Shown here: positions 5,384 through 22,307 of the stretch, piece by piece | Numbering within the stretch: position 1 is the first letter of the stretch | How the letters are laid out: each line of letters opens with the position of its first letter | Made by a program: the position numbers and the translations under genes | Notes under the pieces: model-generated | Told to the model about the DNA's origin: nothing | Database searches by the model: none | What the model saw: only the letters and a program-made list of their open reading frames with translations | Source of the DNA: a virus | Taxonomy: Duplodnaviria > Heunggongvirae > Uroviricota > Caudoviricetes | Length of the DNA stretch: 22,392 nt | Strand: one strand, 5' to 3' | IMG/VR virus record: IMGVR_UViG_3300038829_000114

Positions 5384-5418
5384 TACTAATACCCCCTAGT
5401 AACAATAGGCGGCTTTAA

Positions 5419-5742: not shown

Positions 5743-5761
5743 TAAGTGTCTCTATACAATA

Positions 5762-5989: not shown

Positions 5990-6026
5990 AATATACTCCT
6001 ATATTGTGAATCATTATATAAACTTA

Positions 6027-6148: not shown

Positions 6149-6520
6149 GCCAAATGGTCTCTATTTATAATAACTATTGGAACAATGTTATTAACAACTA
6201 TTGGGATAACATAGTCTCTATTCTGGAATTTCGGAAAAATGCTGTCATGTCGATAAAAACCTTGGGTCTGGAAAAAATACCTGGGTATATTAAAAAAGCT
6301 AAGCTTTTTCGTATGCAGATTATTGCATATGAGGCTTATAGAGACTCTTTTAAGGCCATATTACCCTATGGAGGTACCCTGGTAGTGGGTATAGGTGTCA
6401 AACGCGGCTATAAGTCTTATATTAAGCTCACAGGGCCATACCCATTGCCCTACTGTACTAACGAATGGTCATACATCCATCCTTTGCTAAGATTGTTTCC
6501 ATACTCTAACAGTAGAATAC

Positions 6521-6549
6521 ATTATACCAGATTAGTTATAATGGTTCAA
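6521..6549 (-). promoter_or_regulatory. Sigma70-type promoter TTGAAC-17-TATAAT
   Basis: gttcaa 6544-6549 and attata 6521-6526 on plus strand; 17-nt spacer. Confidence 0.55.
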
Positions 6550-6572
6550 GTGGTTGTGGTATAGTATCTCTA

Positions 6573-6892: not shown

Positions 6893-6968
6893 TGTTAGGC
6901 TCCTTTACGTTATGGTCTTAGTTTATCTTAATAGAGACGATAATGCAAGTGGTTATGGTATGGTGTCT

Positions 6969-7298
6969 CTATCCGAGGGTGTTAGCATTGCGTTTGTTTT
7001 CAATGCTCATAAGTAAGGCACCATTTTCGTTATGGCCCGAACCGCAATTGTATTGGTGGGAGTGGCAAATAACGTCCCAGGCTTTGCGCTGGCCGATGAC
7101 GTTCAAAGTATCCCAAATCGCGGGGTCGAATTTGAATACCAGGCCCATGACTACCTTTGGCTCACTGGTATCGACATTCTGACCAGGATCAGCCATAACC
7201 ATAGGCGCTAAGGGGCTTTGGTACTGGGTTTGGAAATTGTGATAGCCCAAGAGCGTACCAGTGTACATATAATTTTGGCCGAGGCAGATAACTTTCAT
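6969..7298 (-). CDS. Hypothetical protein, 109 aa
   Basis: ORF track; AAAGGG RBS; stop TAG is the start of a TAGAGAC arm. Confidence 0.8.
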   Translation of the reverse strand: MKVICLGQNYMYTGTLLGYHNFQTQYQSPLAPMVMADPGQNVDTSEPKVVMGLVFKFDPAIWDTLNVIGQRKAWDVICHSHQYNCGSGHNENGALLMSIENKRNANTLG

Positions 7299-7754: not shown

Positions 7755-7831
7755 ATCTTAAACCCCTTTAAGTTATGAGTCCAGTTTACCAGTTAAGAGA
7801 CATAGAGACAACTGTGTGTGTTATGGTATCT

Positions 7832-8068
7832 CTATCCGAGGGCTTTACCAGACAGTGCAAAAATGTCTGTGTTATCATTAAACGGTTTCAATGAATACTT
7901 GTCTATGATCTTAAACGTATATTGAGGCTTGCCAGCAAACATAGAGACGATTTTTTGTTCGGCGCGGTGCAGGGTGTTTGCTTCAACGACAAAACCCCGT
8001 TCTGTGGCCATTTTTATTCCGTCCCCGTCTATGATAGCGTAGTGGACTTTAATCGTGTGTAAACCCAT
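7832..8068 (-). CDS. Hypothetical protein, 78 aa
   Basis: ORF track; 2-nt gap to upstream gene; stop within CCCTCGGA-TAGAGAT. Confidence 0.75.
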   Translation of the reverse strand: MGLHTIKVHYAIIDGDGIKMATERGFVVEANTLHRAEQKIVSMFAGKPQYTFKIIDKYSLKPFNDNTDIFALSGKALG

Positions 8069-8307: not shown

Positions 8308-8380
8308 GTGTTCCCCTTTACGTTATAGAGACATTATAGCTTAGTTAATAGAGACAATCAAGTGTGAGTTTAGAGTGTCT

Positions 8381-8524
8381 CTATTCGAGGTAGCGTTTCA
8401 TAGAGAATCGGCTAGGTTGCCACCAGTAACGCCAATAGCCACCCTTAAGATGAACCCAGCGGAATACCCATTGACCGATTTGCAATTCCCAGGCTGTTGG
8501 CCCTTTGCCGAATAAAAGAACCAT
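8381..8524 (-). CDS. Small Trp-rich protein, 47 aa
   Basis: In-frame ATG 8524 of track ORF 8381-8668, 1 nt after the upstream stop; stop TAG is in a TAGAGAC arm. Confidence 0.65.
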   Translation of the reverse strand: MVLLFGKGPTAWELQIGQWVFRWVHLKGGYWRYWWQPSRFSMKRYLE

Positions 8525-8813: not shown

Positions 8814-8898
8814 GATAACGCCTCGCTTTGTTATGACTGTCATAATAACTTAAGTTATAGAGACAATCAAATTTGGGTTTATGGTGTCTCTATAAGAG

Positions 8899-9186
8899 CT
8901 AGCTAAGAACGGTTGCGATTTGGTATGATTCGCCGTCGCTACTTACTTTAATAGCTACGCCGGAAAAAAAGCTGTCTGTGTGGATGCCATGATAACCCTT
9001 TGCGATAAGTTCAGGATGATTTGACCGTAGAAAATCGCTGATATGGTACCAATAACGGCGATAGTATATGAAACCGTCATGGCGTTCATCCTCGCTTAAG
9101 TGGTCGAATTGATCGGCCATAACGCTTTTCGGGACTTCATAGCCGTACTTAAAATGGCGCTGTTTGTTGTTTGTGATGATGTTCAT
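8899..9186 (-). CDS. Hypothetical protein (F.Y...Y...DF.R...DSFFSG motif)
   Basis: ORF track; AAAGGGG RBS; promoter TTGACA(9239-9244)-17-TATACT(9216-9221). Confidence 0.85.
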   Translation of the reverse strand: MNIITNNKQRHFKYGYEVPKSVMADQFDHLSEDERHDGFIYYRRYWYHISDFLRSNHPELIAKGYHGIHTDSFFSGVAIKVSSDGESYQIATVLS

Positions 9187-9294
9187 GGCCTTCCCCTTTG
9201 CGTTATGTTGGAATCAGTATAACTTAAGTTAAGAGGCTTGTCAAATGGGCTTGAGGGGTGGCGGTTTGACAATAAGTAATCACTATGCTACAAT

Positions 9295-9376
9295 ATCTTA
9301 TACCGTTGAGATAGTACGGGACGGGCGGGAAGGTCTAATCATATCAGGGCGTTATAGGACAGACTTCCACATGTAC
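9295..9376 (+). ncRNA. 82-bp inter-promoter element, copy 1 (candidate small RNA)
   Basis: ATCTTATACCGTTGAGATAG..GGACG..GGAAGGTCT-N24-AGACTTCCACATG between TTGACA-17-TACAAT (+) and TGTTATAAT (-). Confidence 0.6.
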
Positions 9377-9435
9377 ATTATAACATGAAAAAAATAGAGA
9401 CGCCACCACTGTTGGTATTGTCTCTATAAGAGGGG

Positions 9436-9576: not shown

Positions 9577-9656
9577 TGTTTCCTCCTTTAGTGTTAATAG
9601 TATAGCAGAACAGAGACACCCCCCGCAAGAGTGTTTTGGTGTTGTCTCTATAAGAG

Positions 9657-9887: not shown

Positions 9888-9975
9888 AAGTCACCCCTTT
9901 AAGTTATGACGTTAGTTTAACAGAACAGAGACACCCCCACAAACTCAGTCATGGGAGTGTCTCTATTCGAGGGGT

Positions 9976-10440
9976 TTAAGCGGCTTGTGCGGCGGTCAGT
10001 GTTTCGGAGCCTGTAGCTTGTTCGATTGCCAATTCTTCGACAATGAGGCCGGTTGTAAGCACCTTGCCGGAACGCTTGGCTTTTGGCAGGTTTTGAAACA
10101 TGGCCGCTACTTGTTCCTCATACTTGTCCAGGTCGGCAAAATCCTTGAGCATCGTTTCACCTTGTTCGCCAAGAATGACAGCCAAGGCCATGGCGCGTTC
10201 GAGTAGCTTCAAGGCATGCGGAGCCGTGATACCAGAATAGCGGACAAACAACGCCAAAGCCGTTTTGATTGGCACATGGGCAGTCGGCGTATATTGTTCA
10301 TCGGCCTTGACTTCAAAATGGCCGGAAACGCGGACGGCAAGGTCTACCGTATGCTTGCCAACGGATTGCTGCTTACGCAATTCCTTTTGACGCGCATCTT
10401 TAACAATCTTGCTGAGCGCGAACTCTTGTACTGTGTTCAT
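9976..10440 (-). CDS. Hypothetical protein, 154 aa
   Basis: ORF track; AAGGGG RBS; promoter TTGACA(10514-10519)-17-TAGAAT(10491-10496). Confidence 0.85.
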   Translation of the reverse strand: MNTVQEFALSKIVKDARQKELRKQQSVGKHTVDLAVRVSGHFEVKADEQYTPTAHVPIKTALALFVRYSGITAPHALKLLERAMALAVILGEQGETMLKDFADLDKYEEQVAAMFQNLPKAKRSGKVLTTGLIVEELAIEQATGSETLTAAQAA

Positions 10441-10618
10441 TGTTTTACCCCTTTGGCCGTTTTTGGCCGGTTCGTTATCGTATGGAATCCATTCTATCGG
10501 ATTTGCAGGGATTTGTCAAACGAAACAAACATACCCCTTTAGGGGTATGTTAATAACTCGCATAGAGACACCATAAACTATTGTTGCAATGTCTCTAATT
10601 TGCTGGTAAACTGGTTTT

Positions 10619-10858
10619 ATGATTTTACGAAACCAACTTTGCCCGGATTGCGATTCAATGCTAAAAGTAGCAAACCATAACGCGGGACAAGTGTACGCGC
10701 ATTGTTCAAACAATTGCGGGTATTCTACTAAGCCGCGCAATACTCTTATTGACTTGAATGTACATGTTAATGACATTCGCGCCAAGCGTATCGGGCGGGC
10801 CGCTATGAAACTTGGTATTAAAACCGTGGCCGAACTCGAAACCTTGCTGAAAAAGTAG
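10619..10858 (+). CDS. Small zinc-ribbon protein (CPDC...CSNNC), probably leaderless
   Basis: ORF track; ATG is 6 nt after TTGCAA-17-TAAACT and has no RBS. Confidence 0.75.
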   Translation: MILRNQLCPDCDSMLKVANHNAGQVYAHCSNNCGYSTKPRNTLIDLNVHVNDIRAKRIGRAAMKLGIKTVAELETLLKK

Positions 10859-10889
10859 ATTTGACAGCTTGAAAATCCTATGATATAAT

Positions 10890-10970
10890 ATCTTATACGG
10901 TTGAGATAGAGCCGGACGAAAGAGGGGTCTGGTCTGATAGGGCATAGGATGGCTAGACTCCCACATGTAT
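10890..10970 (+). ncRNA. 81-bp inter-promoter element, copy 2
   Basis: Same scaffold as copy 1; flanked by TTGACA-17-TATAAT (10861-10889, +) and TTGACA-17-TAAAAT (10999-10971, -). Confidence 0.6.
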
Positions 10971-11098
10971 ATTTTACCATGTGATATGTTAGTTGTCAAA
11001 CTGGGATGATAATAGCTCTTATAGAGACTATGCTTGTTTGTGTTGCAGTGTCTCTATAACTATGTTAAACTGGTTTCATAACTTGAAGGGGAAAAACG

Positions 11099-11386
11099 AT
11101 GCAAACTTATCAAGCAAAATGGTATTCTGATCCTGGCCATGAGTGGTTACAGGTCGAAAAAAAGGATTGCGTAGCCCTTGGCATTACTGGCAAGGTAAGC
11201 GAGTGCAGCTATCACAAAGGCCAGCATGCCTACTTAGAGGGCGATTGTGATGCGCCTCTGTTTTATAATGCTGTGGAGGCTTTGGGCGGGGTTATCGACA
11301 TGGGCGTAGAAGTAAGCGCAAACGATGACAGTCCTGTGCGCGAAATGTCCCGGATTACCAGCCGCATGAACTGGAGCCAATCATGA
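11099..11386 (+). CDS. Hypothetical protein with SDPGH.WL...SY...YLEGDCDA motif (widespread uncharacterised phage/plasmid family)
   Basis: ORF track; AAGGGG RBS; promoter TTGCAG-17-TAAACT. Confidence 0.9.
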   Translation: MQTYQAKWYSDPGHEWLQVEKKDCVALGITGKVSECSYHKGQHAYLEGDCDAPLFYNAVEALGGVIDMGVEVSANDDSPVREMSRITSRMNWSQS

Positions 11387-11649
11387 TGAAACATGTACCA
11401 GACTCCATGACGTTCGTAACAGATGATTTTAAGGTTGTCAAGCGGGATGTTGCTAACATTGTTATTCACCCTGTCGGCCATAGCTGTCCCGCGATTCGCA
11501 AAGATTGGATGGCTGTCGAAATTACCAGCGTGACCGGCGAGAAATGGTATCGTGGGACGCAGAAGGCGTTTATTGATAGCCATTTGAAAGTCGCTATGGA
11601 AGTCCACCCTAACGATGAAATTTTAGCCAAGTGGCCGGATGCTAACTAG
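11383..11649 (+). CDS. Hypothetical protein, 88 aa
   Basis: ORF track; ATGA overlap. Confidence 0.75.
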   Translation: MMKHVPDSMTFVTDDFKVVKRDVANIVIHPVGHSCPAIRKDWMAVEITSVTGEKWYRGTQKAFIDSHLKVAMEVHPNDEILAKWPDAN

Positions 11650-11729
11650 ATCGAATAGAGACACCGACTAACTAGCGTTTGTGAGGGTAGTCTCTAACTG
11701 GTAAACTGATTGCAACATAAGGGGTTCAC

Positions 11730-12020
11730 ATGAAACGTATTGACATTCATGGTCGTCGCTGGTGGAACAAACGAACGGGAAGCACTTACCATAGCGTCAG
11801 TGTCGAAGTAGACGGCGTTGAAGTATTCAAAATTCCCTTTGCTTATGGGTACGATCAGCAATACTTGACCAATGCAATGAACGAACTCCAGCGCCGGGGG
11901 CTTGTGAGCCGTATACAGTATCAAGGGGGTTCATGGGAAGCGCCATGGGTTTATGCCAAGCGCGTCGGTGTCGAACTCAATTATGGCGCTATGGACGTAA
12001 ACCGTAAAAAAGACCTCTAA
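11730..12020 (+). CDS. Hypothetical protein (RRW...G.TYHS...PFAYGY.QQY motif)
   Basis: ORF track; AAGGGG RBS; stop TAA directly followed by TAGAGAC. Confidence 0.85.
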   Translation: MKRIDIHGRRWWNKRTGSTYHSVSVEVDGVEVFKIPFAYGYDQQYLTNAMNELQRRGLVSRIQYQGGSWEAPWVYAKRVGVELNYGAMDVNRKKDL

Positions 12021-12093
12021 TAGAGACACCGACTAAGGCTATTTGCTTAGAGTCTCTATAACTGATAAACTATTCTTACTTAAAGGGGTTCAC

Positions 12094-12288
12094 ATGAAAT
12101 CATACATTGTTGGCTTAGAGAACAACGAAAAATCGCAGGATGTTATCGAAGCTGATAACATGATGGACGCGGCGGATATGTGGCTAGAATCGCATCCTGA
12201 CGCCTCTGGCCGGGTTATCGTTGAGAATGAGACTGGCGACAAAGCAGGCTATAATGTTAGCACCGTGGCAACTGCTGAGTTAGTATGA
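12094..12288 (+). CDS. Small acidic protein, 64 aa
   Basis: In-frame ATG of track ORF 12043-12288, after AAAGGGG. Confidence 0.75.
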   Translation: MKSYIVGLENNEKSQDVIEADNMMDAADMWLESHPDASGRVIVENETGDKAGYNVSTVATAELV

Positions 12289-12503
12289 ACATCGAACAGG
12301 CCAGAAAACTAAAACGCGGCAATGTTGTTACTCTAGGCCCGTTTGCGGAGGGCCACGGCTTGACAAGACACCAAACAGTTACGGTAGCCAACAACGTCCA
12401 CCAAAGTGGGGCGACATACCAATTACCGAATGGAACGCTTTACATATGGGTTTCAGTTAGGGCCACGCATGAAATCGTCGTGGCCTCTCACCAACTGAGC
12501 TAG
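12285..12503 (+). CDS. Hypothetical protein, 72 aa
   Basis: ORF track; ATGA overlap. Confidence 0.7.
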   Translation: MNIEQARKLKRGNVVTLGPFAEGHGLTRHQTVTVANNVHQSGATYQLPNGTLYIWVSVRATHEIVVASHQLS

Positions 12504-12507
12504 TCTA

Positions 12508-12690
12508 ATGGTCAAAACAAAAGAACAGTGGGCCGCAATCAAAGCAAAATACCGTCCTTTAGTGATGGAAATTTGCCATGATGTTGCTACCCGTATCAAC
12601 AAAGATGCGCCACAAATCGAAGATGACGGGCCTTACAAGTGTCAAATGGCGCTAGAACTCGTTATCGAAGAATTACAAAACCGGGTCTAG
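12508..12690 (+). CDS. Hypothetical protein, 60 aa
   Basis: ORF track; followed by a module. Confidence 0.7.
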   Translation: MVKTKEQWAAIKAKYRPLVMEICHDVATRINKDAPQIEDDGPYKCQMALELVIEELQNRV

Positions 12691-12747
12691 CTCTAATAGA
12701 GACTTCAAAAGCTGTGACTTGCGGAGTCTCTATTAAAATGTTAAACT

Positions 12748-12836
12748 ATACATGCGGAAGTCTGTAGTGGAGTAGTCTCTAAAGGACGGACCACTCCCTT
12801 TGCTTCTCTGTTGCCGTTCGTTCATCGTATAAATAC
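12748..12836 (-). ncRNA. Diverged, inverted fifth copy of the inter-promoter element (89 bp)
   Basis: Minus strand starts GTATTTATACG and ends AGACTTCCGCATGTAT; internal stem GGAGTGGTC/GACTACTCC; flanked by TTGCGG-17-TAAACT (+) and TTGCGA-17-TATACT (-). Confidence 0.4.
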
Positions 12837-12979
12837 AGTATAACCTAAAATCAGCATGTTCGCAAATAGAGATGCTTAGTCCCTCTAAAAGAGCTATCAT
12901 AGTTTGTGCGGTTGTGATTGTCCTTTAACTTAGTTATAATGATGTCATAAGATAACAAACCAACGAAAGGGGTTTCACA

Positions 12980-13900
12980 ATGGCAAAAGAAAAAGGCAAG
13001 TCTGTTTACGAAATCGTTTCGGAACAGATTATCAACATGATTGAAACATCGGGCGAATTACCTTGGCAAAGGCCATGGGTTGCGGGGGAATCGACGCCAA
13101 AAAATTTGAAGTCGAAGAAAGAGTATAACGGCTTTAACGTGTTTTACCTGTCTTGGGTGGCACAAGCTAAAAATTGGGGGCCGTACTGGTTGACTTGGAA
13201 GCAATGCGAGGCTTTTGGCGGCAAGGTAAAGGACGGCGAATCGAAAAACTATACAATCGTGACATTTTGGAAGTTTTTTGACAATCGAACGTCTGAACAA
13301 GTTGAAGCAGGCGCGAACGGCAAAAGCATACCAATGTTGCGCTACTATAGGGTTTACAATGCCGATCAATGCGACGGACTGAAGCTGCCAGCAAAAGCGC
13401 CCATGCCTAACGTGGTATCGCCGGTCGAAGCTGCGGACGCAATCGTCAAGGGCTACATTTTGGGGCCGTCCATTGTCCACGGCAACGGCGGACGCGCAAG
13501 CTATTCGCCATTGCTTGACACTGTGAACATGCCAGCCGTTGAATCGTTTACGTCGGTGTCTGGTTACTACGGTGTTTTGTTTCACGAATTGGTACATTCA
13601 ACAGGCCATGAAAAGCGGTTAAAGCGTGACATTGCTAACACATATGGCACTGAACCGTATGGCCGCGAAGAATTGATCGCTGAACTAGGGGCCGCTATGC
13701 TATGTGCAAAGGCCGGAATTGCCCCAAATATCGACAATTCAGTTGGCTACCTGCAAAGCTGGCTCAAAGCAATCAAAAGCGACCCAAAGGCAATTGTGAC
13801 GGCGACAGGTAAGGCCGACAAAGCTGCCAAGTATATCGCGGGCGAAACAAAGGCCGAAAGCCTAGACAGCGACGAAAGCGAACAGGCCGAAGCTGCCTAA
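12980..13900 (+). CDS. ardC: ArdC-family anti-restriction / ssDNA-binding protein with zincin-like C-terminal domain
   Basis: LPWQRPW, YNGFN, WLTWKQ...GGKVK.GE, LRYYRVYNADQ (ArdC N-domain); YY..LFHELVHSTGH...YGREELIAELGAA (HExxH zincin-like fold). Confidence 0.9.
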   Translation: MAKEKGKSVYEIVSEQIINMIETSGELPWQRPWVAGESTPKNLKSKKEYNGFNVFYLSWVAQAKNWGPYWLTWKQCEAFGGKVKDGESKNYTIVTFWKFFDNRTSEQVEAGANGKSIPMLRYYRVYNADQCDGLKLPAKAPMPNVVSPVEAADAIVKGYILGPSIVHGNGGRASYSPLLDTVNMPAVESFTSVSGYYGVLFHELVHSTGHEKRLKRDIANTYGTEPYGREELIAELGAAMLCAKAGIAPNIDNSVGYLQSWLKAIKSDPKAIVTATGKADKAAKYIAGETKAESLDSDESEQAEAA

Positions 13901-13984
13901 CTCTAATAGAGACACCTTAGTCGGTAACTTGGCTAGGGTGTCTCTAGTTTGGTAGAATAGACTTATAACGTAAAGGGGTTTACG

Positions 13985-14287
13985 ATGAAAGTTATCCAAG
14001 ACATGACAGTGTTAAAAGCAATGCAGCGCCGGGGCTTGATTCGATTCCACGAGGATACGGGCAAGCTGGTTGGCCAATTGTTTAGCAATCGTAAGGCAAA
14101 AGCCTATTACATTGACGGCGGACCTCGGACGGTGTTTGACTATGATGATTCCCGCTACCAGATCAAATATTTTGATGGTTGCTTTTGTCCTTTTGTTGTC
14201 GAAATCGGGCCGCGTTTGATGACTGAAGAGGAAAAAATTGTTTGGGGAATACCTTTGGAAAGGGTGTGTTATGTCAATGTCAACTAA
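13985..14287 (+). CDS. Hypothetical protein (KYFDGCFCPFV motif)
   Basis: ORF track; ATAACGTAAAGGGG leader. Confidence 0.85.
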   Translation: MKVIQDMTVLKAMQRRGLIRFHEDTGKLVGQLFSNRKAKAYYIDGGPRTVFDYDDSRYQIKYFDGCFCPFVVEIGPRLMTEEEKIVWGIPLERVCYVNVN

Positions 14288-14603
14288 ATTTGAAGTAGAC
14301 ATGACGGTTGCTGTGTTTGACCGATCTGGAATACGGGCAAGGCGCGTCATTGTCTCTATCAGCCCGAAACGTGGTGATATTAAACTGAACGATGAATCAA
14401 AATATGATTCGCGGGGTTATTCTGGCTCAACATGGGAGCATTGGCACATTGAGCCTTGGACAGATACCCATGCGGTTGAACTAAAACGCCGTATCAATTT
14501 GCAAACGCTCAAGGGTATCCACTGGGAAACGCTGAGCGCCGATAAGATTCAAGCGGTTTTGGATGTGTTGAAAGCTGAGCCAGAACCTAAACCCATCGAA
14601 TAG
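14271..14603 (+). CDS. Hypothetical protein, ~110 aa
   Basis: In-frame ATG of track ORF 14238-14603 after GGAAAGGG; stop TAG is in a TAGAGAC arm. Confidence 0.75.
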   Translation: MSMSTKFEVDMTVAVFDRSGIRARRVIVSISPKRGDIKLNDESKYDSRGYSGSTWEHWHIEPWTDTHAVELKRRINLQTLKGIHWETLSADKIQAVLDVLKAEPEPKPIE

Positions 14604-14675
14604 AGACACTGTAGTAAGACACTGGCTAACATAGTCTCTATCTGATAAACTGTATTCAAGTAAAGGGGAATTGAT

Positions 14676-14969
14676 ATGGAAACATGCTATGATCGAAATT
14701 ATAAATGCTGTGAACAACTAACACCGCTAGAACATTTTCAGAAACACGGTTATTACTCTAGCAACGAAATAGGACCAAACATGTCAAAACCAAAATGTCA
14801 ACTGCTCGGCCAAGACTCCAACGTGTTTAACTTGGTTGGGATTGCTTCTCAAACCCTGAAACGTGCGGGACAGCCGGATAACGCTAAGGCAATGACTGAC
14901 CGCGTATTTGCTTCAGGTAGCTTTGATGAAGCATTAGGCATCATCATGGAATATGTGGACGTAGAATGA
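14676..14969 (+). CDS. Hypothetical protein; C-terminal KPKCQLLGQDSNVFNL...SGSFDEAL.II.EYV domain (widespread uncharacterised family); second start possible at 14781
   Basis: ORF track; AAAGGGG before 14676 and AGGA before 14781. Confidence 0.85.
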   Translation: METCYDRNYKCCEQLTPLEHFQKHGYYSSNEIGPNMSKPKCQLLGQDSNVFNLVGIASQTLKRAGQPDNAKAMTDRVFASGSFDEALGIIMEYVDVE

Positions 14970-15199
14970 AAACTTACGAACTACCTTATGGCCTTGTGAT
15001 CGAAACCCAAAACAACGGTGTCGGGACCGTCAAAGAATCTTGTAAGCAAGGCGGCGAAAACCCTGAGCTTAACGCGGCTTTAGACGGTGTTGAGGCAATT
15101 ATGTTAGCTTTGGCTTGTGCTGGGGTTGATATTGATAACGAGCCTGTTCATAATGCCTTTGTGACTGCTGTAGATGCCATTGAAAACAACTTAGGTTAA
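14966..15199 (+). CDS. Hypothetical protein, 77 aa
   Basis: ORF track; ATGA overlap. Confidence 0.8.
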   Translation: MKTYELPYGLVIETQNNGVGTVKESCKQGGENPELNAALDGVEAIMLALACAGVDIDNEPVHNAFVTAVDAIENNLG

Positions 15200-15204
15200 T
15201 AACA

Positions 15205-15282
15205 CTCTAGCGCCCCTTATCCGATTCCCACGCTAGAGACTACTTGGAAAGAATCGGATGGTGCCCGGTTGGGGATAGCCCC
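15205..15282 (+). other. Candidate H-type pseudoknot plus small hairpin in intergenic DNA
   Basis: CTCTAGCG 15205-15212 / CGCTAGAG 15231-15238; loop ATCCGATTC 15219-15227 / GAATCGGAT 15251-15259; GGGG-ATAG-CCCC 15271-15282. Confidence 0.5.
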
Positions 15283-15287
15283 TCTAA

Positions 15288-15332
15288 TAGAGACATTACC
15301 TTCCCCCTTTTTGGTAGTGTCTCTATTTTTTT
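15288..15332 (+). terminator. Module hairpin with T7 tract (intrinsic-terminator-like)
   Basis: 13-bp stem TAGAGACATTACC/GGTAGTGTCTCTA followed by TTTTTTT; equivalent on minus strand at 9388-9426. Confidence 0.6.
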
Positions 15333-15340
15333 GTTATAAT

Positions 15341-15422
15341 GTATTCATACGGTTGAGATAGAACCGGACGGAAAGGGGAGTCTGTTCTTATGCTATGAAT
15401 AGAGACTCTACTACCCCATTAT
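15341..15422 (+). ncRNA. 82-bp inter-promoter element, copy 3
   Basis: GTATTCATACGGTTGAGATAGAACCGGACG..GGGGAGTCT-N19-AGACTC; flanked by TGTTATAAT (+) and TTGACA-17-TATTAT (15451-15423, -). Confidence 0.55.
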
Positions 15423-15554
15423 ATAATACCATTTAGGTTCATGCTTGTCAAACGTGGAGTCAATCTATATCGGATAGAGATACTAACCCTAGTTATATAG
15501 CGGGGGTGTAGTCTCTATGATAGAATGGATTCATAACTTGAAAAGGGGAATCAC

Positions 15555-15932
15555 ATGTTCAAAGTATCAGTAAAGTCAAAGCGTCAAAGCCGTTTGTTGC
15601 CTGGGGGTGTCCCTCGCTGGATTCGTTGCTATGATAACGGGGGGACAGATGCAGGCGGCTCAATTGACCGTTACACCGTGATTTATACGGGCCGATGGAA
15701 AGGCCGGGAACGTGGCACTGATTACTATGTGGCTATGAATGCTGCACCGTTTCACCCGCAAGGTTTTGGGCAACACGGTGAAATAAGTTTTAGCCAGTTG
15801 GGGGACGGTCAGACTGCAATGGACCGGCCTAAGTATTCACACCTTGGTAAGAAAATTACATTTAAGTATTTGCCTACCGATTGTCAAAAGCTGGTTCTAA
15901 GCGATTACAAGGATATTTGGGGCCTCGAATAG
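15555..15932 (+). CDS. Hypothetical protein (YDNGG...DRYTV motif family)
   Basis: ORF track; AAGGGG RBS; stop TAG is in a TAGAGAT arm. Confidence 0.85.
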   Translation: MFKVSVKSKRQSRLLPGGVPRWIRCYDNGGTDAGGSIDRYTVIYTGRWKGRERGTDYYVAMNAAPFHPQGFGQHGEISFSQLGDGQTAMDRPKYSHLGKKITFKYLPTDCQKLVLSDYKDIWGLE

Positions 15933-16003
15933 AGATACCTTAGATATTGTGTTGAGTTGTAGTCTCTATTTTGGTAAACTGATTTTAAGTAAAGGGGAAT
16001 CAC

Positions 16004-16216
16004 ATGAGCGCACAAAAAATGTTTGGTTGCAGTACGGAAATGCTGGACCTTACAATATCGAACAATTTCCGGTCGCATGACGTTAAAATGCTTTTGACAG
16101 GCATTTTGAGCGAATCGCAAGAGGCTATGGCGCGGGGCAATCTGGAAACAGCGCGGCAACAGATCAACCAAGTCAAGTACCTTATCGACAAACTTGAAGT
16201 CAAGCGGGGGAACTAA
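16004..16216 (+). CDS. Hypothetical helical protein, 70 aa
   Basis: ORF track; AAAGGGG RBS; promoter TTGAGT-17-TAAACT. Confidence 0.8.
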   Translation: MSAQKMFGCSTEMLDLTISNNFRSHDVKMLLTGILSESQEAMARGNLETARQQINQVKYLIDKLEVKRGN

Positions 16217-16218
16217 TC

Positions 16219-16794
16219 ATGAGTGTTGGAAGTGCAATGCTTGAAGCTGAAAACCCCTACAAAAACCAAGTTATTCAGGCAACATGGGGCCACCTTGCGC
16301 CGACAAAGCATGTAACCTATCGTGGGTTTTTTACATTCGGCGTAGGTTGTTTTGAAAGCGGTTCCGTTCGCGTGTTGGCGTTTGAGTTTGGCGATTTGGA
16401 TAGCTCACCCTGGATGTACCAAAAGCTCCATGATTTTATCTTTCGCCACAAAGAAAGTTTTGGGGAACGTGGCTGCGTTTATCAATTCGTCGGGACTATC
16501 CGCAATTATTCGTTTTGTGGTAAGATCACAAAGGTTTTTGATGCAAACGTACCTGTCCAGCCGGTGCCTAAACCAAAGCCAAAAAAGCCGGTTGCTATCC
16601 CGCCACCGTCTGACAATATCGAATGGATTAAGGCCGTGGAAGCTGTCAAAGCGGGCGCTGGGTATATTCTCGAAACAACTACGATGTTTCACTATGTAAA
16701 CCCCAAAGGTAAACACGCGGTTTGTTACTGGGGTAGCTTAGACGCAAAAGAAGCTCAAACGACGTTGCGGACGTTAGCAACACAGGCTAACTAA
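16219..16794 (+). CDS. Two-domain hypothetical protein (TWGHLAP...DSSPWMY domain, Pro/Lys linker, C-terminal domain)
   Basis: ORF track; PVQPVPKPKPKKP linker; stop followed by TAGAGAC. Confidence 0.85.
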   Translation: MSVGSAMLEAENPYKNQVIQATWGHLAPTKHVTYRGFFTFGVGCFESGSVRVLAFEFGDLDSSPWMYQKLHDFIFRHKESFGERGCVYQFVGTIRNYSFCGKITKVFDANVPVQPVPKPKPKKPVAIPPPSDNIEWIKAVEAVKAGAGYILETTTMFHYVNPKGKHAVCYWGSLDAKEAQTTLRTLATQAN

Positions 16795-16873
16795 TAGAGA
16801 CACCATAGCTAAGACACTGGCTATTAGTTGGCGTCTAGGGTATAATAAACTCATAACGTAAAAGGGAATTAAC

Positions 16874-17221
16874 ATGAATGTTTTCGACAAACTTAATGCA
16901 GATGTTTACAAAAACACAGACCCGTATCCTGTCAAGCGAGAGGTAAAGCCAAAAGAGTTGCCGGGGTACAAGATTGACAAAGAAACACACCCCGATTTTA
17001 TGGCGGCAAAGGAAGAGTATCGGGAAGCTCAAAAAGTATGGCAGCGGCGCGAATATGAATTACAAGATCAGTTTAAGCGTGATTTGCTTGAGCATCTTGG
17101 TATTACAGGCCACCCCAAAGCCGATTTGCTTTATTCCTATGCATGGTCTCGTGGTCACTCCAGCGGCCTGCATGAAGTGGCTAACTGTGCGCTTGATCTT
17201 GTCGAACTGATTAAGGACTAA
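16874..17221 (+). CDS. Hypothetical protein (AW.RGHSSG..EV motif family)
   Basis: ORF track; AAAGGG RBS; promoter TGGCTA-17-TATAAT. Confidence 0.9.
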   Translation: MNVFDKLNADVYKNTDPYPVKREVKPKELPGYKIDKETHPDFMAAKEEYREAQKVWQRREYELQDQFKRDLLEHLGITGHPKADLLYSYAWSRGHSSGLHEVANCALDLVELIKD

Positions 17222-17400
17222 ACTATAAAAATACGCGCTGAATGACTATCAGCTAGTTGGTCTGAACCACCAATGAAGAAAGAGTATCGTTGCTCTAAAA
17301 AAGGTTTTCTAGGCTTGAATCGGCCCGTTATGGTAGCGACGTAACTAAGTAGCTGGAGGGGAAACCCTGAGAAGGCGGGCTTAGGCTACCACGATTTTTA
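17222..17400 (+). ncRNA. Candidate structured RNA in a 180-bp non-coding gap
   Basis: TGGTAGC 17331-17337 / GCTACCA 17385-17391; CTAAG/CTTAG; AGGG-GAAA-CCCT GNRA hairpin 17357-17368. Confidence 0.45.
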
Positions 17401-17485
17401 ACCCATCACATAGAGACACTATACATTAGTCAGTGGCTAAGGTGTCTCTATTCTGATAAACTGTTTTGAACGTAAAGGGGAATTT

Positions 17486-17716
17486 ATGAGCCATCCAGAC
17501 GACGAGCATTATGTTTACGGAACGGCTACAATCAAACGAAACTGGTTGATCCCTAACTCGTGGCACGTAGGCGGGCAAAAGGATAATCCATACCCGTACA
17601 TTTGTGAAACACTATCCGATGCGTCACGGATGGCACAAACCGTAGATCATTACAACAAGACAAACGAAATTAAAAAATTTGGTACCGACCTTAGCATTTT
17701 AACTCGAACGGTTTAA
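17486..17716 (+). CDS. Hypothetical protein, 76 aa
   Basis: ORF track; AAAGGGG RBS; promoter TGGCTA-17-TAAACT. Confidence 0.8.
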   Translation: MSHPDDEHYVYGTATIKRNWLIPNSWHVGGQKDNPYPYICETLSDASRMAQTVDHYNKTNEIKKFGTDLSILTRTV

Positions 17717-17800
17717 CAACTCTTTTAGAGACACTACCACATTAGACATTGACTGATGTGTCTAAGTAGGATAAACTGATTTTAAGTAAAGGGAAACAAA

Positions 17801-18004
17801 ATGCGAAAATCATACCGTGGTGAATACTGGGTTATTGTCAGTCACGATTCAGTAGGTGAAAAAATCTATTGGAGTAATCGTTGGGGCTGGACTGGTCTTG
17901 GTGAAGCCGATTGCTATAAAACGTACCAAAAACGTCTCTATGCGTTGCCTATGAATAGCGCACCCGTTAAGTGGGAAAACTTGCGGAGACAAAAGACATC
18001 TTGA
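17801..18004 (+). CDS. Hypothetical protein (YWSNRWGW motif), 67 aa
   Basis: ORF track; AAAGGG RBS; promoter TTGACT-17-TAAACT. Confidence 0.8.
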   Translation: MRKSYRGEYWVIVSHDSVGEKIYWSNRWGWTGLGEADCYKTYQKRLYALPMNSAPVKWENLRRQKTS

Positions 18005-18005
18005 T

Positions 18006-18034
18006 TTGACTTTAAGCTAAGTTAGTGGTAGAAT
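18006..18034 (+). promoter_or_regulatory. Sigma70 promoter TTGACT-17-TAGAAT (no TAGAGAC pair)
   Basis: Read directly from sequence. Confidence 0.7.
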
Positions 18035-18060
18035 ATATTTAAGTGAAAAGGAGTTACACA

Positions 18061-18393
18061 ATGGCCAATGAATCAATCCAATTTAATTTAGTCGAAGCAT
18101 TACGCCGGTTCGAGTGCTTTGGTGTTGCTGAAGGGCGTGTAACTTGGTGCATTGATGATTTGGTTAATCTCAAGTGGACTGTGCTTGCCTATGCTTCAGA
18201 GATGAGAAAGACAACCGCGCAAGGCTATATGGTTGTTGCCGGGCACTATGAAAAGCGTTGTCTTGGTTGGTATCAACTGACAGAGAAAGGCGCTAAGATC
18301 GTACTCAAGTGGCATGAAATGGGTGTTCACTGCTTTGATTACAATGTTGTTGGTACTCCCCCATTTTACAAAGATATTGAAAAACAACTCTAA
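18061..18393 (+). CDS. Hypothetical protein, possible winged-helix wing (WYQLTEKG)
   Basis: In-frame ATG of track ORF 18043-18393 after AAAGGAG; stop followed by TAGAGAC. Confidence 0.8.
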   Translation: MANESIQFNLVEALRRFECFGVAEGRVTWCIDDLVNLKWTVLAYASEMRKTTAQGYMVVAGHYEKRCLGWYQLTEKGAKIVLKWHEMGVHCFDYNVVGTPPFYKDIEKQL

Positions 18394-18471
18394 TAGAGAC
18401 ACCATAAACTAGCAATTGATTTAGTAGTCTCTATGGTGTAGAATAGATTCATAACGTGAAAGGAACACAAA

Positions 18472-18693
18472 ATGATTTTTCGTGATTATCTTGAAAAACT
18501 AAATGCCTTTGCGGAAAGTAACCCAAAGGTTCTCGATTTGCCTATTGTTGCTGAATTCCATTCGGATGAGGGTAATGCAGCTTATAAAGAGTTACAACAT
18601 GAACCCGTTGTTGCCGGATGGGATGGCCTAGACTGCTATACAATGCATGGCCAGGATGCTGATGCCCGCATGTGCGTTTTTATCAACCACTAA
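18472..18693 (+). CDS. Hypothetical protein, 73 aa
   Basis: ORF track; AAAGGA RBS; promoter TTGATT-17-TAGAAT. Confidence 0.8.
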   Translation: MIFRDYLEKLNAFAESNPKVLDLPIVAEFHSDEGNAAYKELQHEPVVAGWDGLDCYTMHGQDADARMCVFINH

Positions 18694-18703
18694 GGAACAA
18701 CAA

Positions 18704-18946
18704 ATGCTCAACGATTTTAACGACCCGTCAAGCGACTCTTGGATTTTCCGTAATTTCGGTAGAATCTCTACAGTCATGATTGTTATAGGTCTTTTAGCTG
18801 CTGTTATTCAAATTGGAGCAATTGTTTTCATTGCCGCTAAAACGGTTGACGCTGTTTCTGAAGAATGTACTGGTAAAGACGCGGCAAGTTGCGCGGGTGG
18901 GATTGCAGGAAAATTCAAAAAAGCATTTAACGAAGAGGCGAACTAA
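18704..18946 (+). CDS. Single-pass membrane protein, ~80 aa
   Basis: In-frame ATG of track ORF 18647-18946 after AAGGA; hydrophobic VMIVIGLLAAVIQIGAIVFIA. Confidence 0.8.
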   Translation: MLNDFNDPSSDSWIFRNFGRISTVMIVIGLLAAVIQIGAIVFIAAKTVDAVSEECTGKDAASCAGGIAGKFKKAFNEEAN

Positions 18947-18947
18947 C

Positions 18948-19121
18948 ATGGCTAAAACTTACAAAGATTTGCTCAAGTGGCTGGTTGCTATGCCGGATGC
19001 CCGACTTGAGGACACGGCTACAATCCAATTTGATGACGAATACTTTGCTGTAGACGATTTTGGAGTCTGTGATGACGGGGTGCTTGATGATGGCCATTTG
19101 TTTATGGTTGTCGGTGAATAG
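18948..19121 (+). CDS. Small acidic protein, 57 aa (MAKTYKDLL...DEYF...VLDDGH)
   Basis: In-frame ATG of track ORF 18813-19121 after GAGG. Confidence 0.8.
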   Translation: MAKTYKDLLKWLVAMPDARLEDTATIQFDDEYFAVDDFGVCDDGVLDDGHLFMVVGE

Positions 19122-19203
19122 CATCTAATAGAGACACCTTTAATCTCAGTTTGTGGAGTCTCTATAAATTTGTTAAACTGGTTTCAACGTAAAGGGGAAT
19201 TAC

Positions 19204-19395
19204 ATGAACAAATTAGCAGTTACACAGTTGCTCGAAGGTGTTGCCAACGAATTGCTTGGTATTGATGCCGACGATTTGACCACGGCTGAAAAAAACATTG
19301 TGCGGCGTCTCTATAACTTTCGGAAAGAAGAAAAGCTACCCGAACGTGAAGAACTTACGCGCCTTTATAACGAAGTCTCCAAGGGGCCACGATAA
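19204..19395 (+). CDS. Hypothetical protein, 63 aa
   Basis: ORF track; AAAGGGG RBS; promoter TTGTGG-17-TAAACT. Confidence 0.8.
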   Translation: MNKLAVTQLLEGVANELLGIDADDLTTAEKNIVRRLYNFRKEEKLPEREELTRLYNEVSKGPR

Positions 19396-19694
19396 TGCGC
19401 GGGCAAAAGTTTTTCAAAATATTTTTCGAGGAAAAGCAACTACCGGACGAACACTGGGAACTGGTTGCTGAAGATGGTACGCCTAACTATATCGGTACGG
19501 ATGTGGTTATCGAACACCTTACGATGGACGGGGCTGCTAATTACTTTGGTCCAGATGTTTACCGTAAGATTGAGGACACCATTCGGATGATTGACTTTAA
19601 GAATGGCAACGTAAACCATTATTTACACTTTTTGGCGTGTGGCTTGGCCGGGGCTAACCCTGAGCTACCTGAAAATAAATATCGCAAGGAATAG
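19395..19694 (+). CDS. Hypothetical protein (FFEEK...IDFKNGNV.HYL.FLA motif family)
   Basis: ORF track; TAATG overlap. Confidence 0.85.
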   Translation: MRGQKFFKIFFEEKQLPDEHWELVAEDGTPNYIGTDVVIEHLTMDGAANYFGPDVYRKIEDTIRMIDFKNGNVNHYLHFLACGLAGANPELPENKYRKE

Positions 19695-19806
19695 GCTTAT
19701 AAGCGTTCACAGCGGTATACCTCGGATAGAGATACCTTAACCCGTTACTTGTTTTCGTCCCTAAAAATAGGTATAATTAGGGACAAGATGAAAGGAGCAA
19801 AAAAAC

Positions 19807-19860
19807 ATGAGTCCATACACAATTTGGCCGGATGATTGGGATATTGGTGGGGAATCGTGA
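19807..19860 (+). CDS. 17-aa mini-ORF (MSPYTIWPDDWDIGGES) coupled to the next gene
   Basis: AAAGGAG RBS; TGA overlaps GTG at 19857. Confidence 0.4.
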   Translation: MSPYTIWPDDWDIGGES

Positions 19861-20156
19861 ACCAACTTACCTTAGACCAAAAGATCACGTTCAAAGGTGA
19901 GTTAGCCCGCTTTGGATATATTCATGATTTTCCCCGGTTGAACATGGAACACCTTGTTTTCCTTTGGTATCGGGTACGTGGTATCTCTATCACACAATTT
20001 CTCAAAGGCCGTAAATTCGTTTATCGGCCACGTTATGAGGAAATACTAGAGGCCCGTGCTAACAAACAAAAACGGGACTTAGGGGAGCGCTTAATCAAAG
20101 GGTTGTCGCAAGTGGGCCGGATTGGTTATAATTTCCACACAGCAACACACGTTTGA
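19857..20156 (+). CDS. Hypothetical basic protein, ~99 aa
   Basis: In-frame GTG of track ORF 19836-20156 after GGGGA. Confidence 0.7.
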   Translation: MNQLTLDQKITFKGELARFGYIHDFPRLNMEHLVFLWYRVRGISITQFLKGRKFVYRPRYEEILEARANKQKRDLGERLIKGLSQVGRIGYNFHTATHV

Positions 20157-20165
20157 AGGCACATC

Positions 20166-20336
20166 ATGAGTAGCTTAAAAGATCGCTGCAAGCACTGTAA
20201 AAGAGAACGTGGAAAGCATAAGGCTACCACGCATCATTGCCCTGTAGGAATGAAAACACGTATTGGATACCTTCAATTTCATCCTACACAGGTGTTTGAG
20301 TTAGGCAAAGAGTACAAAAACACTATTACTCTCTGA
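20166..20336 (+). CDS. Small Cys/His protein, 56 aa (CKHC...H...HCP); not in ORF track
   Basis: Hand translation MSSLKDRCKHCKRERGKHKATTHHCPVGMKTRIGYLQFHPTQVFELGKEYKNTITL; GAAGG RBS. Confidence 0.75.
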   Translation: MSSLKDRCKHCKRERGKHKATTHHCPVGMKTRIGYLQFHPTQVFELGKEYKNTITL

Positions 20337-20366
20337 TTTGACAATAGAGATAACCCCTGGTATAAT

Positions 20367-20448
20367 ATCTTATACGGTTGAGAAACTACCGGACGAGAGG
20401 GAAGGTCTGTTATTGGCTATAGTGGCGCGATTAGACTCCCACATGATC
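20367..20448 (+). ncRNA. 82-bp inter-promoter element, copy 4
   Basis: ATCTTATACGGTTGAGAAA..CCGGACG..GGGAAGGTCT-N24-AGACTCCCACATG; flanked by TTGACA-17-TATAAT (20338-20366, +) and TGATATACT (-). Confidence 0.6.
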
Positions 20449-20723
20449 AGTATATCACGTATCGCGCCATTTATCGCGCCACTTTGTCGTGATACCTCTA
20501 AAAGAGATAGTAAACCCAGGTGAGTCCATCAACCTTCCGCTTACTCACTAAGCACGAGCATGCTTTGTTGAAAGGTCGGGCTGGATTTACAAAACCATTA
20601 TGCCATAGAGACAACATTATTGCAAATAGGTTATAAAGTGTCTCTATCAGATATACTAAGGGAATTGGGTTGTGGTGTCTCTATGATGGTGTTATTATGA
20701 AGCGTAACGTAAAGGGGAATAAA

Positions 20724-20852
20724 ATGAAACCGACAGTAAAAGCGCGGAATTGGGGGAATGTAACCCTACAGTTTAAGTCTGGACGTGGTGTACACAAGGA
20801 CAAGTCTATGTACACGCGGAAAGTTAAACATAAGGGCAAAATTGACAAGTAG
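20724..20852 (+). CDS. Small basic protein, 42 aa (…HKDKSMYTRKVKHK…)
   Basis: In-frame ATG of track ORF 20670-20852 after TAACGTAAAGGGG. Confidence 0.8.
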   Translation: MKPTVKARNWGNVTLQFKSGRGVHKDKSMYTRKVKHKGKIDK

Positions 20853-20904
20853 TGTTGGTTCTGGTAAACTTATTACAACTGAAAACTTTTGAAATGGAGC
20901 TAAC

Positions 20905-21540
20905 ATGAAATTCAATATCAACAGCGGAAAAATTGTGGTGTCCGACCCGTGCTATGAAAATGGTGTAGAGTGTCGCCATCTTATCGAAAATGCTTTGGTT
21001 GGCGTGTGGGTTGCTGAAGTACGTCTCTCTGATGAAGGTTCATGGGGCCAACGTGTTTCCGAACTGGTTATCCGCCATGAAAGCTGTAAACTGACTGTTG
21101 AACCGTACAGTCTCGAATCGTCCGACATTGGTGTTGACTCTGGACAAGCTGGTTTCTTTGATGCCGATGCCTACCGTAAGGATGAACTCATTATCAAAAC
21201 GCCTGAATTTGATTTAGGCGATCATGGAAAAGGTGATGGGGATAAATGGTATAGTGCTTGCTGTGACCTTACCCTAAGCAATGAACGGGCCGGGGTGGTT
21301 GCTGAAACGGGTGTGGTCTCGTCCAGTGGCTTTGGCGATGGTTGTTATCAGTTGTTTGTTTCGACTAACACTGATGGTAAAGTGATTGCCGCAAAGATCG
21401 TTTTTATCGGGCCGGAAGAAGAAGAAGAAGAGGACGAATGCTGGGGCTGTAACAATCCCGAATCCGAATGTACCTGCTGCCAAGAATGTGGTAAGGGCGA
21501 TTGTGACGGGGAATGTCAAAACGAGCCGGAAGAGGACTAA
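20905..21540 (+). CDS. DUF4241-like protein with acidic, Cys-rich tail
   Basis: SGKIVVSDPCY, IGVDSGQAGFFD and SSGFGDGCY motifs; tail E7D-CWGC...CTCCQECGKGDCDGEC. Confidence 0.8.
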   Translation: MKFNINSGKIVVSDPCYENGVECRHLIENALVGVWVAEVRLSDEGSWGQRVSELVIRHESCKLTVEPYSLESSDIGVDSGQAGFFDADAYRKDELIIKTPEFDLGDHGKGDGDKWYSACCDLTLSNERAGVVAETGVVSSSGFGDGCYQLFVSTNTDGKVIAAKIVFIGPEEEEEEDECWGCNNPESECTCCQECGKGDCDGECQNEPEED

Positions 21541-21622
21541 ATCTTTTAGAGACACTATAGACAGTGACTTGAGGTGTCTCTAGTTGTTTGGTAAAATGGT
21601 TGATAAGTGAAAGGGAAACAAC

Positions 21623-21851: not shown

Positions 21852-22271
21852 ATGGACAAATGGCTTAAATTTTGGGAAGTTGTTGACGCAATCGACTGGC
21901 GTAGCCACCAAGACTACAACAAGGGTGGGGCCATTATGTTTAACAACCTAAAGCTATCTAAGGCTGAAGTTAGAACCTTGCGTGGTGTTAAGCAAGCCTA
22001 TTTCAAACCGTTGTGGGATAAGCTGCTGGTTATGTTCAATGCCGATCATGACAAAGACTATCATATGTCTGATGACTCTCTATCTGACCTTTGTGACGAG
22101 ATTATTGGCCGGGGGTGGTCTTACTATAAAACAGTTATGGAATGCCCGGAAATCGCTATTAAAATGGCACGGGCTAACGATTATGAAGAATCGTTTTCAT
22201 ACTGTTTTCAAGGTGCTTATGATGACTCGGATAGAGACACTGACTTAGCTGATTTGAATAGCGCCAACTAG
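21852..22271 (+). CDS. Hypothetical protein, DUF4240-like pattern
   Basis: FWEVVD...SDDSLSDL...IIGRG..YY..V...P resembles the DUF4240 pattern (by eye only). Confidence 0.6.
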   Translation: MDKWLKFWEVVDAIDWRSHQDYNKGGAIMFNNLKLSKAEVRTLRGVKQAYFKPLWDKLLVMFNADHDKDYHMSDDSLSDLCDEIIGRGWSYYKTVMECPEIAIKMARANDYEESFSYCFQGAYDDSDRDTDLADLNSAN

Positions 22272-22307
22272 TCTGGTAAAATAGTCTCTAAGGATAAAGG
22301 AACTTAT

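Follow-up and report, generated by a model that had tools for sequence, protein, structure and literature searches.

Inverted TAGAGAC units with embedded predicted promoters at the gene junctions of an uncultivated groundwater phage resemble promoter-early stem-loops

Results

A block of small genes with a repeated unit at its junctions

The 22,392-nt stretch analysed here (IMG/VR record IMGVR_UViG_3300038829_000114, Caudoviricetes; hereafter the window) is a block of small genes of an uncultivated groundwater phage, in which gene direction switches at ~10.5 kb, with leftward genes below this point and rightward genes above it. Nearly all of the junctions between these small early genes carry a repeated unit of the form TAGAGAC-N18-29-GTCTCTA, that is, a heptamer (hereafter the word) followed by its inverse. 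Approximately 26 such inverted pairs lie between positions 6932 and 22290 (Table 1), their spacing varying from 18 to 29 nt and reaching up to 45 nt. Counted on both strands, TAGAGAC occurs 73 times versus 2.2 expected, and on the sense strand 54 forward and 49 reverse copies of the word were recorded, mainly in inverted pairs; wherever copies are paired, they are inverted (24 of 24). The leftmost 6 kb of the window has a GC content of 37%, compared with ~44% in the rest. A Pfam scan of 20 window proteins matched known families only for an ArdC-like antirestriction gene, an HNH-AP2 endonuclease, one DUF4241 protein and, weakly and below the Pfam cut-off, a DUF4240-like protein; the remaining scanned proteins had no family match, and most genes flanking the units are ORFans.

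Contigs identical or near-identical to the window come from ENA project PRJEB10139, and a near-identity search of 13.4 kb against GenBank phages returned no match. A further contig of the same phage (L061) provides 11 kb of downstream sequence and adds four units, bringing the total to 30; the combined sequence of this phage used in the gene comparison amounts to 33.8 kb. Rfam and tRNA scans yielded nothing that would explain the units, IMG/VR scans with the unit pattern gave chance hits only, an IMG/VR scan with the ArdC-like protein found no relative, and a pattern scan of JGI metagenomes returned 16 loci, none of them enriched for the word.

Read in the direction of transcription, the parts of a unit follow a constant order: first comes the upstream gene's stop codon, then the left arm (CTCnnA)TAGAGACAC and ~13 variable bases, next a TTGnnn -35 hexamer and, within the promoter spacer, the right arm GTCTCTA. 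The unit closes with an extended -10, either TGnTAAACT or TATAAT, followed by a leader, an AAAGGGG Shine-Dalgarno sequence and ATG. The orientation of the units matches gene direction on either side of the ~10.5-kb divergence and, when the units are aligned along transcription, their left side, (C/A)TCnnATAGAGACAC(C/T), is longer and better conserved than the right. Near-identical left arms form sub-families (TCGRATAGAGATACC). In most units a stop codon lies inside the left arm or within 12 nt of it; frequently the word's own TAG terminates the upstream gene, or an in-frame stop does so a few codons ahead of the word. Among the units with an adjacent upstream gene, ~14 of 18 have a stop that either is the TAG of TAGAGAC or is in frame with it (e.g. 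TAG CTC TAA TAG), where chance would give such frame agreement in one case out of three.

The left arm is phase-locked to a predicted promoter

The promoters of the units are predicted as consensus matches. In 27 of the 30 units, a TTGnnn -35 lies 20-24 nt (mostly 22-23 nt) from the left arm's first base, and a -10 (extended TGnTAAACT, TATAAT or TAGAAT, with the TG present in most units) lies 17-18 bp beyond it. The right arm, by contrast with this fixed register, has a start that varies between 4 nt upstream and 8 nt downstream of the end of the -35, and 2-14 nt separate its own end from the -10. The left arm is therefore phase-locked to the promoter while the right arm slides in the spacer, and the hairpin always encloses the -35, either within its loop or within its 3' arm. 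An independent consensus scan, which counts the unit promoters too, found 47 promoter-like sites compared with 29.4 +/- 6.4 in shuffled sequences.

Table 1. Junction units of the window, with RNA folding energies and sense-strand z-scores where available
Position	Strand	Sense/antisense (kcal/mol)	Sense z	Features
6932..6971	-	-6.9/-9.9		junction unit, arms only, interior unpaired
7803..7834	-			junction unit; left arm TAGAGAT (G-U on sense)
8349..8383	-			junction unit; arms 8 bp; -35 TTGATT adjoins right arm
8858..8892	-			junction unit; arms 8 bp
9395..9426	-			junction unit, then 7 T (canonical terminator shape); ortholog L064:1688-1720
9611..9650	-			junction unit; right arm GTCTCTG (U-G on sense)
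9926..9965	-	-25.5/-17.6	-6.3	17-bp hairpin, four G-U; covaries with relative
10563..10597	+			junction unit at start of rightward genes
11022..11056	+			junction unit; with 10563 brackets cassette missing from relative
11656..11696	+			junction unit
12021..12058	+			junction unit; right half and promoter kept with relocated gene in relative (L064:2967-3002)
12697..12732	+			10-bp stem; compared with L064:66-101, one compensatory change and two involving G-U
13907..13946	+	-26.3/-17.3	-6.8	18-bp hairpin, four G-U, TAAC loop; -35 TTGGCT in 3' arm; stem identical in relative
14601..14640	+			junction unit; inner motif AGACACTGGCT, 3' half is the -35
15288..15325	+	-18.3/-13.8	-7.5	13-bp hairpin, one G-U, then 7 T (canonical terminator shape)
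15475..15517	+			junction unit; left arm TAGAGAT
15930..15968	+			junction unit; left arm TAGAGAT, TAG is upstream gene's stop
16795..16838	+			unit, right arm degenerate; inner motif AGACACTGGCT
17411..17450	+	-16.3/-11.0	-4.0	10-bp outer stem, 5-nt bulge, 6-bp inner stem, AGU triloop
17726..17764	+			unit, degenerate right arm GTGTCTA; -35 TTGACT within inner motif
18394..18433	+			junction unit, arms only
19129..19164	+			junction unit, arms only
19727..19763	+			decayed unit (TAGAGAT and GTCCCTA; 0 kcal/mol); predicted promoter retained
20606..20646	+			junction unit; extra right arm 20677-20683 inside second promoter
21547..21582	+			10-bp stem; inner motif AGACAGTGACT; -35 TTGAGG
22232..22290	+			long unit that reaches into coding sequence with its left arm; right arm immediately after -10

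Support for sense-strand RNA hairpins in a subset of units

The initial annotation of this DNA, made from the letters alone, had proposed that the spacers fold as hairpins whose G-T wobbles work only on the sense strand, and its three hairpin examples were borne out by folding: the 18-bp and 13-bp stems at 13907 and 15288 were recovered as described, and the minus-strand hairpin at 9926 has 17 bp with four G-U pairs that include the two originally named. Such long hairpins reach sense z-scores of -6 to -7.5, their antisense counterparts being weaker. The arm variants listed in that annotation are likewise present, with TAGAGAT (7803-7834 on the minus strand, 15475, 15930 and 19727) and GTCTCTG (9611 and 9926, minus sense) giving G-U on the sense strand and GTCCCTA at 19757 giving an A-C mismatch. 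Across both this phage and its relative (see below), the six TAGAGAT variants are all left arms and the two GTCTCTG variants both right arms, so that eight arm variants give G-U on the sense strand versus one that gives A-C, a count that overstates the number of independent events because some copies are probably paralogs. The mirror variants, which are equivalent in duplex DNA, were seen in no unit.

As a statement about all spacers, the wobble claim held poorly. The annotation had named the lack of a significant sense-versus-antisense folding asymmetry over all copies as the result that would refute it, and the rank tests are indeed non-significant (p=0.10-0.14; sense more stable in 15 of the 26 window units). 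Against shuffled controls, the picture is divided: the mean asymmetry of the 30 units (-1.09) exceeds a composition-matched, interior-shuffled null (-0.34 +/- 0.32, P=0.013), whereas the interiors of only about six units fold better than interior-shuffled controls (z below -2). The signal is thus carried by five or six units. It is confined to RNA parameters, as DNA energy parameters show no strand asymmetry (12 versus 12, p=0.93). In an ungapped register, arm positions 1-7 contain 6 G-T and 1 A-C, positions 8-14 contain 16 G-T and 15 A-C, and a strand-symmetric counting rule gives 18 G-T versus 8 A-C (p=0.076). Strand-specific wobble is thus not a general property of the spacers but holds for a few well-formed hairpins and for the placement of the arm variants. 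Taken with the comparison below, the evidence favours a sense-strand RNA hairpin for some of the units at least. Control through a cruciform or a DNA-hairpin promoter was considered and is unlikely, because arms of 7-8 bp enclose loops of 18-29 nt and the DNA parameters reveal no asymmetry.

The inner motif is a promoter-overlapping sequence

A recurring inner motif, AGWCANTGRCT, had been read as a triloop tip. It does recur, with six exact copies, all on the sense strand (14617, 16812, 17428, 17744, 21559 and 22235), and 16 matches with at most one mismatch compared with 4.1 expected. As a fold, it failed in most places: the motif alone yields 0.0 kcal/mol in four of five cases and forms a triloop only at 17428 (-1.5 kcal/mol). 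The proposed analogy with N4 virion-RNAP promoters, which rely on a stable DNA hairpin of 5-7 bp with a 3-nt loop, falls with these unstable tips and with the symmetry under DNA parameters. In four of the six exact copies, the 3' half of the motif (CTGGCT, GTGGCT, TTGACT) is a -35-like hexamer paired with a downstream -10. The inner motif is a quasi-palindromic sequence motif overlapping the promoter rather than a structural tip.

Compensatory changes and cassette turnover relative to a related phage

The only relative found to carry the word is represented by two Logan contigs of SRR21686415, L064 and L043, with a 28-nt overlap; a contig from a second run (L065) is identical. It shares ~75% nucleotide identity with this phage and has both the word and the units. 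Three more distant relatives (L066, L067 and L068; 43-52% protein identity) lack the word and hence provide no additional covariation, and a search for homologs of the DUF4241 protein turned up no close relative, the best match being at 51%.

Three orthologous hairpins could be compared. The 9926 hairpin and its counterpart (L064:1368-1407) differ by seven stem substitutions, none of which breaks a pair: 17 of 17 pairs are kept, two through changes on both sides (C-G to G-C) and three through one-sided changes, all from G-U to Watson-Crick on the sense strand, an outcome that simulated random substitution reaches with P ~1e-4 to 4e-3. At 12697, all 10 pairs are likewise kept (P ~3e-3), with the both-side change going from A-U to U-A and the two one-sided changes both from C-G to U-G. 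At 13907, the relative (L043:1124-1162) has the same base at each of the 34 stem positions, the four G-T pairs among them, and the differences fall in the loop and leader, in a region where the adjoining ArdC gene is ~75% identical. Taken together, these hairpins contain three compensatory changes, five one-sided changes (all involving G-U on the sense strand) and no disruptive ones, which supports selection on sense-strand structure in a minority of the units. The earlier proposal that selection acts on a single-stranded structure thus stands for this minority, through covariation with one relative, but has to be complemented by a reading of the word as sequence that is at least as important (see below).

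The same comparison showed that cassettes have been gained, lost and moved exactly at units between both phages, as judged from the alignment of their sequences. The ends of homology blocks lie within 14 nt of a left arm, and the window has additional unit-bracketed cassettes (e.g. the 10563-11022 stretch, unit 9611 with a 46-aa gene, and unit 8858 with gene 8899-9186). The 100-aa gene 13985-14287, which follows the unit of the ArdC gene, is absent from the relative; there, the ArdC-gene unit and its promoter (L043:1116-1343) are placed to drive the homolog of the next gene (14238-14603). Gene 12085-12288 has been relocated in the relative, retaining the right half of its unit and the promoter. 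Overall, 7 of the 13 genes of the relative have homologs in the 33.8 kb of this phage, in a different order.

The word also occurs singly

Copies of the word without a partner occupy several defined positions. The forward word lies in the spacer just after the -35 at 23462, 25864, 28712 and 33307 (L061, window-equivalent numbering). It stands immediately after a -10 at 3829, 5263 and 6027 (forward, minus sense; in these three cases directly after TGTTATAAT) and at 8326 and 22284 (reverse), while at 6521-6570 (minus sense) a left arm is found at its usual distance from TTGAAC-17-TATAAT with no right arm. At promoter-less junctions of the low-GC module, the word precedes ATG by 1-9 nt in the absence of a Shine-Dalgarno sequence (1274, 1592, 3519 and 5748), so that translation there may be leaderless or coupled. 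A further 16 copies or more are intragenic, a total far above chance. Most intragenic copies are reverse on the sense strand (GTCTCTAT; 12 versus 4, e.g. at 7578, 7942, 14352, 17934, 19307 and in L061), a bias that we dropped as non-significant given reading-frame limits. The word is constrained as sequence, because it never covaries and occurs singly at promoters and junctions; its duplex or otherwise sequence-specific reading is at least as important as folding.

Other features of the window

The low-GC module (positions 1-6200, minus-strand genes) has a strong strand skew and encodes the HNH-AP2 endonuclease at 1586-2530. Positions 10528-10551, in the control region from which leftward and rightward genes diverge, form a perfect 10-bp palindrome, AACATACCCC-TTTA-GGGGTATGTT, which is kept in the relative (L064:795-818) with symmetric base changes (TATATACCCC..GGGGTATATA). 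A strong predicted TTGACA-17-TATAAT promoter is present in four copies (9263-9390, 10858-11000, 15330-15450 and 20335-20470 on the plus strand), each with a conserved non-coding stretch of ~90 nt downstream (ATACGGTTGAGATAG..CCGGACG..GGTCTG..AGACTCCCACATG); this element faces an opposing promoter, has a copy in the relative at L064:1720-1840, and gave no Rfam or tRNA match and no hits in an IMG/VR scan. An unrelated viral contig (L008; IMGVR_UViG_3300045988_042524) carries repeated classic terminators whose stems begin with TAGAGAC(A/G)C (661-692, 1016-1045 and 2011-2040), followed by a T-run and then by a TATAAT promoter before the next small gene.

Discussion

Repeated elements that combine a stem-loop with a promoter at gene junctions have been described in the T4-type phages RB49/phi1, PST and nt-1 as promoter-early stem-loops (PeSLs), the stem words of which are lineage-specific, namely GN..CN, A3-4G3..C3T3-4 and AGNA..TCNT (Arbiol et al. 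2010, PMC2839356; Comeau et al. 2014, PMC4122927), and for which promoter and terminator activity as well as mini-circle formation were documented by reporter assays and inverse PCR (PMC2839356). The units described here share with PeSLs a stem-loop built on a lineage-specific stem word that may overlap the -35, sigma70-type -35 and -10 elements at 17-bp spacing together with a Shine-Dalgarno sequence (by consensus match, 27 of our 30 units read TTGnnn-17/18-TAnnnT), G-T pairs in the stems, an association with ORFans, indels and replacements at the elements between close relatives (in our case one relative), and the habit of filling the gap that separates the upstream stop codon from the downstream Shine-Dalgarno sequence and ATG. 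They depart from PeSLs in that a single fixed stem-base word of 7-9 nt is used, and used also singly at promoters and junctions, that the left arm keeps a fixed phase, 22-23 nt ahead of the -35, that the loops are long (18-29 nt) and mostly unpaired, and that homology beyond the word is short. Moreover, PeSLs come from T4-type myoviruses and are backed by experiments, whereas the present units are sequence predictions from a window without core genes. We see about an even chance that the units are PeSL-type composite cassettes joining a terminator and a promoter at gene junctions.

If this is so, the promoter of each unit would start transcription downstream of the right arm and, because of this placement, the hairpin would take RNA form only in transcripts of the upstream gene, at their 3' end. 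There it would most likely attenuate or terminate read-through, or protect the 3' end of the upstream transcript, and each ORFan would amount to an insulated, self-promoted cassette. The G-U pairs and the wobble-only arm variants might reflect this RNA role, and units without a T-run might act as weak terminators or attenuators. The word of 7-9 nt would additionally be constrained as sequence, either because a factor recognizes it or because recombination between cassettes keeps it uniform.

Several observations weigh against a reading of the units as PeSL-type cassettes. Like intrinsic terminators, the units would place an RNA hairpin at gene 3' ends, and four of the 30 have the canonical terminator shape with at least 6 T within 9 nt after the stem; most, however, combine a 7-8 bp stem and a loop of ~20 nt with no U-tract, and their stem base is a fixed sequence instead of any GC-rich stem. 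A generic terminator scan calls no unit at all and finds 11 sites versus 16.2 in shuffles. The sense strand folds more stably in 15 of the 26 window units (mean 1.25 kcal/mol, Wilcoxon p=0.10) and in 17 versus 13 when the L061 units are included (p=0.14), and interiors pair with the right arms of other units about as well (72 versus 64.9 +/- 5.3, p=0.11). Across ~35 copies, the arms never switch to a different Watson-Crick pair, the comparative evidence comes from one relative, and a pure structure model leaves the single copies of the word unexplained.

One alternative is that the heptamer is chiefly a duplex-DNA operator, through which a phage or host regulator shuts off or roadblocks early transcription and for which the hairpin is a by-product of inverted sites placed around the -35. 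We consider this rather unlikely as the main explanation, although several observations speak for it: hardly any copy deviates from the exact word, which never covaries; it is enriched 30-fold, the at least 16 intragenic copies included; single copies stand after the -35, after the -10 and beside ATG at promoter-less junctions; the left arm keeps its phase to the promoter; and the word is shared by a module of different base composition (37% GC) and kept in the relative, while absent from more distant relatives. There is also a precedent in the stoperators of Cluster A mycobacteriophages (L5 gp71, TipsytheTRex repressor), asymmetric 13-mers that a monomeric repressor of a temperate phage binds in a single orientation (PMC9283540), and which resemble the present word in being short sequences that recur by the dozen, within a single phage lineage, at promoters and in the narrow gaps between genes. 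Our word is nevertheless shorter (7-9 nt), occurs in both orientations (54 forward and 49 reverse copies), typically as inverted pairs, and is accompanied by RNA-type covariation, and the Pfam scan found no helix-turn-helix protein, or any other DNA-binding protein, among the window proteins. An operator would also leave it unaccounted for that every pair of copies is inverted, with a spacing that varies (18-29 nt, up to 45), that the interiors of orthologous hairpins covary, that the distance from the right arm to the -10 ranges from 2 to 14 nt, and that arm variants are wobble-compatible by 8 to 1, given that a protein reading the duplex should tolerate the mirror variant equally.

The turnover of cassettes at the left arms, together with 7-bp inverse core sites surrounding a variable interior right after stop codons and the strand-specific pairing signal in some units, could alternatively point to single-stranded DNA recombination sites of mobile cassettes, i.e. 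hairpin substrates of a recombinase or HUH protein similar to attC or to REP/IS200-type elements. The initial annotation had drawn the attC analogy, and the inverted 7-bp boxes after each gene, the variable interior and cassette mobility at the sites are indeed common to both, but the analogy breaks down in the remaining respects. The cores (TAGAGAC...GTCTCTA) do not match RYYYAAC...GTTRRRY; the interiors are far shorter than in attC, mostly unpaired, and show no L boxes or extrahelical-base pattern; every cassette has its own predicted promoter, in contrast to promoter-less cassettes, and cassettes lie on both strands with unit orientation following transcription on either side of the divergence; DNA parameters give no asymmetry, G-T adding little stability in DNA; and the Pfam scan of 20 window proteins found no integrase, tyrosine recombinase or HUH protein. 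We regard such sites as highly improbable. It is improbable, too, that the hairpin potential has no function, with arms multiplied by cassette duplication or recombination and long stems arising by chance or as local palindromes. Most interiors fold no better than shuffles, the rank tests of asymmetry are non-significant and the near-identical left-arm sub-families suggest copying, but neither the compensatory changes and full stem conservation against ~25% background divergence, nor the z-scores of the long stems, nor the inversion of all 24 paired copies would be expected in that case. A further proposal, to which we assign a similarly small probability, combines sequence and structure: the TAGAGAC/GUCUCUA stem might be a sequence-specific recognition hairpin, formed in RNA or in a transient single strand and read at every cassette boundary by a putative phage factor such as an antiterminator, processing nuclease or recombinase. 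Were this true, insulation and cassette exchange in a lytic-type phage would use a word-plus-structure code instead of generic terminators.

Returning to the PeSL-type reading, the units would extend a PeSL-like architecture, in which a terminator-like hairpin is coupled to a host-type promoter and marks the points at which ORFans are swapped, to an uncultivated groundwater phage. Two constraints appear separable on one and the same element, with the arms held by sequence and a subset of the stems by sense-strand pairing that is maintained through compensatory changes. The system thereby offers a concrete case for asking whether junction words are read by a protein or merely kept uniform by recombination. 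At the same time, the units would supply ~30 predicted promoters and gene boundaries for the annotation of a region with almost no protein family matches.

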